IMG/VR virus record: IMGVR_UViG_3300037420_001133
Coordinates: 1 to 45,119 of that record
Origin: a virus
Lineage: Duplodnaviria; Caudoviricetes
DNA length: 45,119 nucleotides
Direction: 5' to 3' (one strand)
Positions 17,948-21,814 of this stretch are shown here, piece after piece (position 1 is the stretch's first letter; the number at the start of each line of letters is the position of its first letter). A model generated the notes under the pieces. The model was not told where the DNA came from. It ran no database searches and saw only the letters and a program-made list of their open reading frames with translations. Made by a program: the position numbers and the translations under genes.

Positions 17948-19107
17948 TGGCCTGGATCCGCCAGCTCGACTCCGGGCTGTGGGCGGCCACCGTCTACACC
18001 CCGGCCGGGAGGATCACCGAGTCGTTCCGGCTGAAGGGCTCAGCCGAGAACTGGGCCGCCAACCTCAAGGCCGACATCGACCGCGGGGAGTTCATCGACC
18101 CCCGCAAGGCGATGACCACAGTGGACGAGATCTGGACGAAGCACAGCGGCGCCCGCAGGTTGGAGCGCGCCAGCCGCAAGCGCGACGAGTCGATCTACAA
18201 GAACCACGTCGCGCCACGCTGGGGCAAGCTCCCGGTCGGGGCCATCCTGAAACCCGATGTGCAGGCGTGGGTCAACAAGATGGAGGAGGACGGTGTCGGC
18301 GGCTGGGTCATCATCGCCGCGCTGAACGTCCTCAAGGCCGCACTGGAGCTCGCCGTCGACGGCGCCTACCTCCGCCACAACGCCGCCCGACGTGTCCAAC
18401 CGCCGATCCCGCCGCAGCACGTCGATCGGGTCCTCACACCCGACGAGCAGGATCTCCTCCTGGCCCGGTTCGACGAGCTGTTCCCGGGCCGGCGGGACGC
18501 GCGGCTGTTCGTCGAGGGATTGTTGGAGACCGGCGGCAGGTGGGAGGAGGTCGCCGCGGTGAAGCGGGAGGCGGTGAACCTCCGCCACCTGCTCGTCGAC
18601 CTCGGTCCGGTGTTGGAGCGGGACGGCACGATCCGCGACTACCCGAAGGGGGCGCGGTCGAGGCACGCCGCCGGCTTCCGGTCGGCGCCGATCAGCCAGG
18701 ACTACGCGAACCGGCTGCGGCCGATCGTGCTCGCCACTCCCCCGGGTGGCCTCATCTTCACCGCACCGCAGGGCGGGCCGCTGGACTACTCGCGGTGGCA
18801 CGACCGGGTGTGGTCGAAGGGCCTGCGCGCGGAGTACATAGGTCCGCCGCCGCAGCGCCGGCCCGGCCAGCGGGGGCCGCTCAAAACCCCCGTCGGACCG
18901 CTGCTCCTGGACGACCCGCAGCCCACGCCGCACGACCTGCGGCACACCGTCGGCACGGAACTGGCCGAGGGTGGGGTGCCGGAGCACGACCGGATGGAGC
19001 TGATGGGGCACAAGGACGCGCGGTCGGCGAGGCGCTACGTCCACTCGTCGGACGAGCGGTTCGAGCGCGCCCGGCAGGCCCGCGCGAGGAAGTCCAGCGG
19101 ATCATGA
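17947..19107 (+). CDS. int: Tyrosine integrase
   Basis: TGGRWEE (R), YPKG (K), HDLRH, MGH, RRYVH (Y). Confidence 0.97.
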   Translation: MAWIRQLDSGLWAATVYTPAGRITESFRLKGSAENWAANLKADIDRGEFIDPRKAMTTVDEIWTKHSGARRLERASRKRDESIYKNHVAPRWGKLPVGAILKPDVQAWVNKMEEDGVGGWVIIAALNVLKAALELAVDGAYLRHNAARRVQPPIPPQHVDRVLTPDEQDLLLARFDELFPGRRDARLFVEGLLETGGRWEEVAAVKREAVNLRHLLVDLGPVLERDGTIRDYPKGARSRHAAGFRSAPISQDYANRLRPIVLATPPGGLIFTAPQGGPLDYSRWHDRVWSKGLRAEYIGPPPQRRPGQRGPLKTPVGPLLLDDPQPTPHDLRHTVGTELAEGGVPEHDRMELMGHKDARSARRYVHSSDERFERARQARARKSSGS

Positions 19108-19331
19108 TGAGTTGCCTGTGAGTTAGGATCATGGAACACGACTGACATGCCTGACATTGCTGACACAGATTCGCGCAGGTCAGGCAGGGTGCGAATCCCC
19201 CGCCGCAGGTCCCGGGCTCGCCCTCAATTCCCTGACACGGAAGAGGTCACTGGTTCAATCCCAGTATCGCCCACCAGCACAAACACCCACTTGAAGATCG
19301 TCACCACAGAGATCATGAGTTGCCTGTGAGT
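19107..19331. other. attP site with arm-type repeats
   Basis: 17-bp direct repeat ATGAGTTGCCTGTGAGT at 19107-19123 and 19315-19331 flanks the tRNA core; 9-bp-period CTGACA triplet at 19142-19165. Confidence 0.85.
19228..19276 (+). pseudogene. 3' half of tRNA-Val(GAC), the attP common core
   Basis: TTCC-CTGACAC-GGAA anticodon arm, CTGG-TTCAATC-CCAG T-arm, TCGCCCACCA end; 5' half absent. Confidence 0.9.
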
Positions 19332-19373
19332 CACGGCCCCGAGGTCCAGGGGGCCGGACTCCACAGTGGACGA

Positions 19374-20661: not shown

Positions 20662-20877
20662 TCAGCGCTTTGTCACGAATCTGCCCTCGCCTTGCCGACC
20701 CTCGATAAGGCCCTCGGCGGTGAGCCACATCAGGGCAGTGCGGAGCGTGCCATAGCTGACCTCGTACTCAGCCATGAGCTGTTCGGTCGTCGGCAGTTGC
20801 TCGCCCGGCTTTATTTGGCCGGTGCGGATCTTCTCGCGGATGGCGTTCGCCACCCGCTCGTACTTGGGTGCAGGCAC
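20662..20877 (-). CDS. GntR-family wHTH regulator (DNA-binding domain only; alternative start 20916)
   Basis: YERVA..IR..I..G...PGEQLPT..QL...Y.VS..T.R.AL..L..EGL...QG.G.FV. Confidence 0.92.
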   Translation of the reverse strand: MPAPKYERVANAIREKIRTGQIKPGEQLPTTEQLMAEYEVSYGTLRTALMWLTAEGLIEGRQGEGRFVTKR

Positions 20878-20952
20878 GGCGGTCTCCCTGGGTCGCACCG
20901 CAAGTAGATCACCCATGGCGCCTCCTGATCAACCAAGTCGTCACAGTCTACC

Positions 20953-20983
20953 TGTCGACAGTGTCGACAGTGTCGACTACCCT
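20953..20983. promoter_or_regulatory. Tandem palindromic operator array with -10 element
   Basis: TGTCGAC(A) x3 at a 9-bp period (20953, 20962, 20971), followed by TACCCT 20978-20983. Confidence 0.65.
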
Positions 20984-20989
20984 CGGCAA

Positions 20990-21080
20990 GAGTCTTCCCT
21001 GGGTCGCAACCGGGAAGACGAGGAAAGCGCGGCGGCCGGCCGGGTCTGCATCGGGCCGGCCGCCGCCCCCGGGGCGGAGG
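20990..21080 (+). ncRNA. Candidate structured leader/antisense RNA divergent from gntR
   Basis: Hairpins CTTCCC..GGGAAG (20994-21017) and a 13-bp GC stem (21029-21066); carries a copy of the gntR start-region sequence. Confidence 0.45.
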
Positions 21081-21085
21081 ACTCC

Positions 21086-21217
21086 ATGCGCTGGCTCACC
21101 CGGCTCTTGCACCGGCGACCCCGTCACGCCCGGGACCTGGAGCACACCGCCCCCAACGGGGACCGGGTGCGCCTGGGGATCCCGCGGGAGATGCTGATGC
21201 GGCGGGAGTGGCGATGA
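21086..21217 (+). CDS. Small basic protein (43 aa)
   Basis: GGAGG SD; ATGA coupling to the next ORF. Confidence 0.55.
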   Translation: MRWLTRLLHRRPRHARDLEHTAPNGDRVRLGIPREMLMRREWR

Positions 21218-21378
21218 GCTACAACAGCGGACCGTGCGACGAGGACTGGGATCCGCAGGAGCGTGATGTCGTAGTCCCGAGCGACGATGAGCGGATGCCT
21301 CGGCGGGAACGGTGGCAGCCGAACCAGCGTGGGGAGCTGTATCCGGTGCGGGATTGGCCGGAGTTGGACGCTGAGTGA
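21214..21378 (+). CDS. Small acidic protein (54 aa, not in ORF track)
   Basis: Hand translation MSYNSGPCDEDWDPQ...DWPELDAE; GGGAG SD. Confidence 0.5.
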   Translation: MSYNSGPCDEDWDPQERDVVVPSDDERMPRRERWQPNQRGELYPVRDWPELDAE

Positions 21379-21550
21379 CGGAATCCGCCGCTTCTCTCGT
21401 TGCGGTTTGTCCGTTCGTGGTGTCGTGTGGCTGACAGGTGTCCGGTTCGGGTAGATGTGGATATCCACCGTCTGGTCGAATCTCCACGCTGATCGAGAGC
21501 GGTTCGGACATAGCGGAACGTCCGATGTGGACAGTCTAAGGTGGACAGTT

Positions 21551-21760
21551 CTACGCGCCGTGATCCTGCCCGGATTTGTCCCAATCCTTGCGGACGTCAT
21601 CCGGGGTCGGCATCGGCTCCCCGGTGACGAACCGGCGCAGCACCGAGGAGATGACCCGCGCCCGCCAGCCGGCGCCCATCGTATCGTCGACCTGTTTGAG
21701 CAGGTCAGACGGCTGCGGTCGATAGATGTAGCCGGGTGTGAGGTGCCGGTCTTTCGCCAT
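21551..21760 (-). CDS. RHH-like small regulator
   Basis: YIYRP...LLKQVD.....RARVISSVLRRFV; leaderless ATG 6 nt after TAGTCT. Confidence 0.65.
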   Translation of the reverse strand: MAKDRHLTPGYIYRPQPSDLLKQVDDTMGAGWRARVISSVLRRFVTGEPMPTPDDVRKDWDKSGQDHGA

Positions 21761-21776: not shown

Positions 21777-21814
21777 GTGGATATCCATCCGTGCTAGCGT
21801 GAGTGGATATCCAC
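21777..21814. promoter_or_regulatory. Divergent promoter with GTGGATATCCAC operators
   Basis: Palindrome at 21777-21788 (1 mismatch) and 21803-21814, third copy at 21457-21468; -10 TAGCGT 21795-21800. Confidence 0.75.

Follow-up and report, generated by a model that had tools for sequence, protein, structure and literature searches.

Small gntR genes and predicted divergent RNAs with matching addresses form a conserved cassette family in Micromonosporaceae and a phage: a candidate protein/antisense-RNA switch

A small gntR gene and a predicted, divergently encoded RNA that carries a complement of the predicted gntR mRNA 5' end form a conserved and apparently undescribed cassette, and the element in the virus sequence studied here is one member of a large paralogous family of such cassettes. 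The shared sequence, called the address in the following, has a fixed position in front of gntR, recurs in a covarying hairpin of the divergent strand, and differs from locus to locus. This comparative evidence makes antisense pairing of the RNA with the gntR mRNA very likely. The full switch, in which the RNA would silence gntR and GntR would silence the promoter of the RNA, is the reading that we consider probable.

The window, i.e., the whole stretch of 45,119 nucleotides that was analyzed, is a complete virus record of 45 kb with 67.6% G+C. It contains the following features:

20662 to 20877, minus strand: gntR, encoding a 71-aa HTH-only GntR with a GTG start (PF00392, E=4.5e-20)
20878 to 20896, minus strand: predicted 19-nt gntR 5' leader, from the sequence, with +1 (20896) placed by promoter spacing
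20903 to 20932, minus strand: predicted gntR promoter, a motif at fixed spacing across paralogues with this putative function
20937 to 20977, no strand assigned: array of GTCnAC-like boxes with a period of about 9 bp, likely GntR operators as judged from the sequence
20955 to 20983, plus strand: predicted promoter of the divergent RNA, TCGACA/17 nt/TACCCT, with +1 at about 20989-20990
20992 to 21019, plus strand: hairpin 1 with the anti-address (folds, covariation, G-U versus A-C, loop exposure)
21029 to 21066, plus strand: hairpin 2, a 13-bp G+C stem with no U tract, a possible terminator or stabiliser
21086 to 21217, plus strand: cargo ORF of 43 aa, SD GGAGG at 21076-21080, GC3 0.93
21214 to 21378, plus strand: second cargo ORF of 54 aa (ORF call), overlapping the stop of the first (ATGA)

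An earlier sequence-only reading had noticed a 13-nt direct repeat, TCCCTGGGTCGCA, and this is indeed present at 20885-20897 and 20996-21008 with a spacing of 111 nt. The first copy, on the minus strand, includes the gntR SD GGGAG (20888-20884), as had been stated. The further claim that the match extends to about 19 nt with two bulges holds for the DNA, where the extension is visible. It does not hold for the RNA, because about 4 nt of the extension precede the predicted gntR +1, and the predicted RNA duplex is thus 15 bp long with one bulge, running from +1 through the SD. The address proper, GCGACCCAGGGAG, begins at the predicted +1 (20896) and takes in the SD. The 45-kb window has five exact direct repeats of 13 nt at distances of 50-200 nt; therefore, the repeat alone is within chance and the case rests on comparative data.

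For the comparison, GntR matches were taken with 310 nt of upstream sequence, and an exact stretch of at least 10 nt shared between positions -36 to -3 and -300 to -55 was counted as a repeat. GntRs of up to 90 aa (HTH-only) were classed as small, those of 91-180 aa as mid, and those above as long. At loci of the Micromonosporaceae type the direct repeat was present for 66 of 108 small GntRs, versus 1/23 mid and 7/51 long ones (together 8/74). The inverted-orientation control gave 0/108, 1/23 and 4/51, respectively. The gap between the copies was mostly 82-147 nt (about 80-150), and the sequence varied among paralogues: the address is GCGACCCAGGG in the window, GCGAGCCAGGG in Micromonospora, GCGAGCCATGGG in most Catellatospora, and GCGACCCGAG in Plantactinospora. 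At the loci compared, close relatives of the window GntR keep both copies, altered together, and this co-variation over about 20 address variants bears out the proposed conservation of the complementarity. The loci include kin and the counts are not independent, so that the number of distinct addresses (20-22) is the better measure. In a tree of 46 matched proteins, which has rough support, most addresses were clade-specific and differed between clades. Whole-genome searches revealed many paralogous small GntRs, with roughly ten cassettes per genome. A further 80 regions comprised nearly all remaining short-frame matches and 31 long ones as controls. At additional loci the repeat was seen in 5/17 short matches, all from genomes G001 and G456, and in 1/25 mid and 1/34 long matches, the last two both being operator-like. 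A negative locus of this later set (L252) is from an unpublished genome, and no conclusion depends on it. The cassette was not seen in other Actinomycetia among the best matches of a sample of 301 genomes.

The sequence ahead of the address is also conserved. It reads GTGATCnA(C/A)T with TTG (or TAG) 19-21 nt earlier, and the motif across paralogues is TTG-17/18-TGATCnAnT. This spacing predicts a -35 box and an extended -10 (TGn-TCnAnT); in the window, the -35 is TTGATC (20932-20927), followed after 18 nt by the extended -10 TGA-TCTACT (20911-20903). Counted from the -7 T, the G of the opening 'GC' of the address is 7-8 nt downstream in 40 of 46 loci and would be +1 or +2. The predicted gntR leaders are mostly 17-20 nt long, and the RNA likely targets the very 5' end of such a short leader (about 19 nt).

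The address could also be defined from the promoter alone. An exact 10-mer defined in this way recurred in the gene's own upstream region in 46 of 79 cases, and in 59 of 79 when one mismatch was allowed. It was never found inverted, and matched the upstream regions of other cassettes in 21 of 4728 comparisons; 20 distinct addresses were involved. The matches peaked at +1 (46, compared with 9 at -3 and 1 at -5), the +1 having been picked among three positions by the presence of GC. A motif-bearing set of 78 (74 small) was obtained from 277 GntR matches, and 62/78 had a match with at most two mismatches in 11 positions, versus 1/78 for the inverted orientation (22 addresses). The two copies had an identity of 1.0 from the predicted +1, of 0.49 at -1, and of 0.09-0.31 further up (n=45). 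Identity thus ends at the predicted +1, upstream of which no mRNA would exist. Two gntR genes were found by the promoter pattern alone, and both have the repeat; one of them carries a G-to-A change in both copies relative to its sister cassettes. The pattern alone is unspecific, as 13 of 15 new matches were other genes.

An address complement that begins at the predicted +1, with its coding site about 100 bp off, would also suit an RNA that acts on transcription. Such an RNA would abort initiation by pairing with the 5' end of the nascent gntR transcript, or with the non-template strand displaced (+1 to +12) in the open promoter. We regard this as very unlikely. Pairing is kept up to the SD, as control of translation needs, and the cassette has no accessory protein. 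At locus L126, moreover, a single RNA has matches in two gntR genes that lie about 400 nt from each other and have the same address and each its own promoter motif, in keeping with a diffusible RNA.

The gntR -10 is non-canonical, e.g., in the window at 20903-20932, with a conserved C where sigma-A promoters carry A(-11). A dedicated sigma factor or an activator at these promoters is possible. A mapped second start of the Actinoplanes lexA gene has the -10 string TGATCTAATC (supplement of PMC7682106), and the start-site table of that study holds six entries starting with TGATCT and one with TGATCC, i.e., such entries are rare. In the supplement rows none of these entries is on a gene annotated as GntR, and the start-site table has no small gene with this annotation (24 GntR rows, the shortest 357 bp). 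The Actinoplanes strings may be taken as thin support for the odd gntR -10. The idea that GUGAUC is the anti-SD arm of a hairpin in the gntR leader was dropped: there was no consensus fold, and the position of the motif at promoter spacing from TTG also speaks against it.

The layout is not complete everywhere. No matching copy was found for 20 of the 79 promoter-bearing genes, e.g., in Hamadaea and for second genes of tandems. At five loci of Hamadaea and metagenome relatives (L024-L026, L032, L033) the promoter motif and a GC-starting leader occur without a matching RNA copy, and another conserved upstream sequence is present. For two orphan gntR addresses, in genomes G005 and G168, no remote RNA partner was found; the match in G168 lies inside a coding region. 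In genome G160 two cassettes (L104 and L125) use the same address, so that orthogonality is incomplete. Both copies read GCCACGCAAGG at locus L298; at L258 this sequence is confined to the gntR leader, the RNA copy being GCCACGCGAGG, and L258 is possibly an uncompensated intermediate. A natural deletion in Micromonospora okii (L004:2300-2500) spares gntR with its leader and takes out the RNA together with its -10 and the beginning of the cargo ORF. A covariance model of the RNA (R1) found 13 places in 151 genomes of the family; the best five were cassettes, four of them apparent training loci, and eight were weak places without an adjacent GntR.

The start of the RNA itself is predicted about 113 nt from the gntR start. 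The TACCCT -10 noted earlier was found at 20978-20983 on the plus strand, and across the loci a TTGAC-17/18-TAnnnT pattern lies just before the far copy, on the strand opposite to gntR. By hand count, with the best site chosen within 3-32 nt and no formal null, TAnnnT was present in 55 of 64 loci and a -35 matching TTGACA in at least 5/6 positions in 46 of 64. The pattern agrees with the Actinoplanes consensus as given in PMC7682106 (TAnnnT and nTGACn, 6.2 nt to the start). A strict sigma-70 scanner did not list the RNA promoter in the window, because TCGACA/17/TACCCT scores 8/12 and the threshold is 9. Two RNA runs (X1/X2) contained 67-kb contigs, i.e., likely DNA. In these runs a related strain (L003:2361-2692) has 330 nt, from inside hairpin 1 to the gntR end, swapped for 229 other letters.

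The second repeat copy had been placed in the first hairpin of the RNA, and this was confirmed (20992-21019, -16.4 kcal/mol, z -3.4; hairpins 1 and 2 folded together, z -3.1). The 5' arm and the loop (UCCCUGGGUCGC) are complementary to gntR mRNA positions +1 to +12; the loop has 7 nt (GUCGCAA) and there is a bulged U. In 13 same-register sequences 91.6% of the cells were paired and 6 of 11 pairs changed on both sides (reached in 3/500 shuffles), the structure for these counts having been specified by the analyst and not by RNAalifold. On the divergent strand, the same sequences had 25 G-U versus 2 A-C, and the structured strand is thus the plus strand, in agreement with the earlier assignment. 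In a broader alignment of 21 sequences 80.5% of the cells pair; RNAalifold found no consensus structure for it, because bulges shift the register. A count of G-U against A-C made symmetrically for all hairpins (127 vs 85) was set aside, because the gntR leader region has the same bias (98 vs 64) and composition may explain it. Folding of 58 loci left the RNA bases opposite gntR -1 to +3 unpaired (P 0.77-0.86). In 54 of 63 cassettes hairpin 1 is succeeded by another strong hairpin, versus 1/63 and 7/51 in controls, and a U tract is present in only 4 of 60. Therefore, the RNA may be a short RNA, a leader of the cargo mRNA, or both.

The three TGTCGAC palindromes described before are present at 20953, 20962 and 20971, and they overlap the predicted promoter of the RNA, as had been suggested. 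They belong to the array of GTCnAC-like boxes, which start at 20937, 20946, 20954, 20963 and 20972. In the RNA promoter, the last three boxes extend over the -35 and all 17 nt of the spacer, and we infer from this that GntR represses the RNA. The recognition helix is highly variable among the small GntRs, and, judged by eye, the promoter-region repeats seem to vary with it: GTCGAC goes with YG[ST]xRT, CCATGG with VS[SD]FVADRV, and ACTAGT/CTAGTC with VSAGVVR.

Address and helix are partly uncoupled, i.e., one address occurs with different helices and one operator type with different addresses, which makes it unlikely that the address is a GntR site. This bears on the question whether the repeat is a feature of the DNA, either a site bound by a protein or what is left of a local duplication, kept by gene conversion. 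Such an origin would accord with the frequency of 13-nt repeats as such and with the lack of a significant G-U bias in the intermolecular duplex (27 vs 30; 3 vs 5; 12 vs 4, p=0.077). It is highly improbable in view of the 20-22 different matched addresses, the uncoupling just described, the end of identity at the predicted +1, and the location of the far copy, whose hairpin covaries, is strand-specific and has the seed in its loop.

The predicted pairing was compared between cognate and non-cognate partners. The median net binding was -17.5 kcal/mol for 46 cognate pairs versus -8.0 kcal/mol for 256 non-cognate pairs, with overlapping distributions, and only 27 of the 46 cognate pairs beat the 5th percentile of the non-cognate ones. 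The value for the window is modest, -11.2 kcal/mol. The predicted duplex covers at least three SD bases in 44 of 44 cases, and the whole SD in 25 and part of it in 19 of these.

The effect of the pairing could also be of the opposite sign. FasX, which acts on the ska mRNA, is an RNA that protects an mRNA 5' end from decay. The cassette RNA might likewise protect the gntR 5' end from 5'-dependent decay, or GntR might activate the RNA promoter; the outcome would be a homeostatic negative loop and no toggle. The start of the duplex exactly at the predicted +1 and the partial coverage of the SD in 19/44 cases would suit this alternative. Pairing of SD bases in every case and operator-like boxes over the -35 and the whole spacer, which is the position of a repressor, oppose it, and we consider it unlikely. 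Mutual repression remains the preferred reading.

Small ORFs follow the divergent RNA in the window, as noticed before (43 aa and 54 aa, plus strand). The 43-aa product had no Pfam, PHROG or homologue match, and for the 54-aa product no match or homologue was found either. At other loci the downstream ORFs encode DivIVA-like coiled coils, Cys-rich peptides or small membrane proteins before XRE genes, or are missing. Three of 12 tested DivIVA-like cargo proteins match PF05103, one of them above the cut-off. Small cargo of this type is frequent (L051, L057, L098, L106, L117, L125, L145) and often has an Arg-rich amphipathic N-terminus, like the 43-aa ORF of the window; such proteins are possibly modulators of polar growth. 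The neighbours of the cassettes vary by locus and include integrase, FtsK and tRNA genes. At one locus (L058:1876-2503) a CRISPR array with at least nine repeats lies just downstream of the cassette gntR.

Many cassettes have a cargo mRNA whose predicted 5' leader is the RNA, and cofolding predicts that hairpin 1 must open when it pairs with the gntR leader. The direction of control could thus be reversed, with the gntR mRNA 5' end as the regulator that opens hairpin 1 of the cargo leader or sponges the RNA and in this way alters cargo expression. When the address was blocked in silico, the accessibility of the cargo SD changed by a mean of -0.003 (n=29; changes above 0.1: none up, three down), in equilibrium folding, which is blind to co-transcriptional termination. 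Catellatospora cassettes, furthermore, have no clear cargo ORF. On balance a regulatory gntR 5' end is quite unlikely, and the RNA is taken as the regulator in the following.

The proposed mechanism is as follows. The loop of the divergent RNA would catch the free 5' end of the gntR mRNA (the first 12-15 nt), and the pairing would zip over the SD and block GntR translation. GntR, in turn, would repress the RNA promoter, and a mutual-repression switch would result that also gates the small genes downstream of the RNA, which we infer to be co-transcribed with it. Once made, the RNA would hold GntR down and prolong cargo expression. As GntR has no ligand domain, absence or dilution of GntR would flip the switch, e.g., when the phage or element enters a new cell, or by noise. 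An own address and an own helix/operator pair for each cassette would limit cross-talk among the about ten cassettes.

A wider reading, taken as one joint claim, is tentative and in our estimate falls somewhat short of an even chance. Micromonosporaceae and their phages might hold a natural library of orthogonal, bistable protein/RNA toggles, about ten per genome. Two identifiers would define each toggle, namely the diversified HTH helix together with its operator, and an RNA address of 10-18 nt located where the repressor mRNA begins (+1). Each might give a burst of a small cargo protein (a DivIVA-like, Cys-rich or membrane peptide), either when a new host is entered or in only part of the cell population.

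The window is read as a temperate phage because its genes include a terminase, an endolysin, a repressor-like gene and an integrase. The element lies in an accessory region with the integrase on one side and the lysis genes on the other. The host family is presumably Micromonosporaceae, which are soil actinobacteria, since the named relatives of the window GntR belong there; unnamed metagenomic relatives have up to 85% identity. The protein has the N-terminal winged HTH (PF00392, 71.5 bits vs a cut-off of 27) and lacks the C-terminal effector/oligomerisation domain of the classic subfamilies, as it ends three residues past the HTH match. No related locus was found in viral contigs, nor by blastn in phages.

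Right after the integrase, positions 19231-19276 look like the 3' portion of a tRNA, with a GAC-containing anticodon arm, a T arm and a CCA end, and this stretch is likely the attP core, as judged from its sequence; ARAGORN called no tRNA there. ATCATGA(T)GAGTTGCCTGTGAGT occurs on both flanks of the putative core (19103-19121 and 19314-19332), and the two stretches are possibly arm sites of the integrase. Further on, the palindrome GTGGATATCCAC is present at 21457-21468, 21777-21788 and 21803-21814, around a 69-aa ORF (21551-21760, minus strand) and a divergent operon from 21828; it has 7 matches vs 1.4 expected. The palindromes and the 69-aa ORF may be a second small repressor/operator module.

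If the proposal is true, a regulatory cassette is widespread in a family of antibiotic producers, and antisense control of the IS10 type exists without gene overlap, tied to the RNA's own repressor and with at least 20 matched address pairs. It would give the many effector-less GntRs of 70-80 aa in these genomes a role and would show a way in which paralogous circuits might be kept free of cross-talk. For actinomycete engineering it would supply a set of RNA/repressor parts that are largely orthogonal and ready for use.

The first known system to be compared is the gntR-DTE motif (RF02989), with which the sequence-only reading had tentatively connected the element. Identity was not borne out, as RF02989 had no match at 20986-21080 even at E<=10; its best window score was 21 bits, elsewhere, compared with a gathering score of 63.6, and in the positive control 18 of 151 genomes were above the cut-off. 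The motif was found in 21 of 151 genomes of a Streptomyces-like genus (assigned by SsgA copy number), and 26 gntR-DTE instances from this genus were compared. The motif is also an actinobacterial structured RNA divergent from gntR, with a gntR within 500 nt in 15 of the 26 instances, and the window RNA shares this layout. However, sequence and fold differ, these 15 lie 249-426 nt from GntRs of about 110-277 aa, and the stretch that they have in common with the start region of gntR is only 5-8 nt long. The gntR-DTE core, CGGGTG...GCCCTGCTGGCGTCAGAGCAG, about 250-430 nt from gntR, is absent at this locus.

Rfam gave no gathering-level match in the window (locally only P17 at E=1.1), and searches over the cassette RNA of 13 + 15 related loci gave nothing beyond chance-level matches. 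IS10 RNA-OUT (RF00240) had no match at the window, and one at locus L093 was below the cut-off and at chance level (E=0.97). A full-text literature search, with subscription papers mostly outside its reach, found no description of the cassette. The main texts of PMC5737381, PMC11109978 and PMC8632094 do not contain 'GntR'; their supplements may bear on novelty.

KorSA of pSAM2 and TraR of pSN22 are GntR-type kor repressors of actinomycete integrative elements and plasmids. They resemble the cassette in that a GntR repressor on mobile DNA is divergent from genes that it is thought to repress. In this context, locus L148 (about 350-1350) has a full-length 249-aa GntR with the complete promoter/address/hairpin layout, and the named phage pMLP1 (L180, CP058906) carries a small-GntR cassette beside GntRs of 129 aa and 253 aa (UTRA). 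Unlike KorSA and TraR, most cassettes found here encode HTH-only proteins. We know of no antisense address in the KorSA/TraR systems, and a literature search for one found nothing relevant.

Mixed double-negative loops of an sRNA and a transcription factor exist in MicF-Lrp and RyhB-Fur, which are single global circuits that rely on Hfq. A synthetic sRNA/repressor digitalizer is described as giving sharp on/off behaviour (bioRxiv 10.1101/783506). As proposed for the cassette, the sRNA in these systems blocks translation of a repressor that is linked to its own control. The cassette differs from the two natural loops in being compact (a few hundred bp), repeated, and equipped with a private address.

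The closest parallel is IS10, in which the loop of RNA-OUT pairs with the 5' tail of RNA-IN, which is unstructured, and the RBS is thereby blocked (PMC4737173). In the cassette a hairpin loop would be complementary to the extreme 5' end of an mRNA, if the predicted +1 is right; the predicted duplex covers the RBS, and specificity would reside in loop and 5'-end bases. RNA-OUT overlaps its target, being encoded opposite the transposase mRNA, whereas the cassette RNA is divergent from gntR and does not overlap it, so that complementarity is kept by a duplicated address of 10-18 nt. In further contrast to RNA-OUT, the target is the repressor that likely controls the RNA, and at least 20 natural address variants exist. 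With these differences, the best reading by analogy is that the cassette would work like IS10 RNA-OUT.
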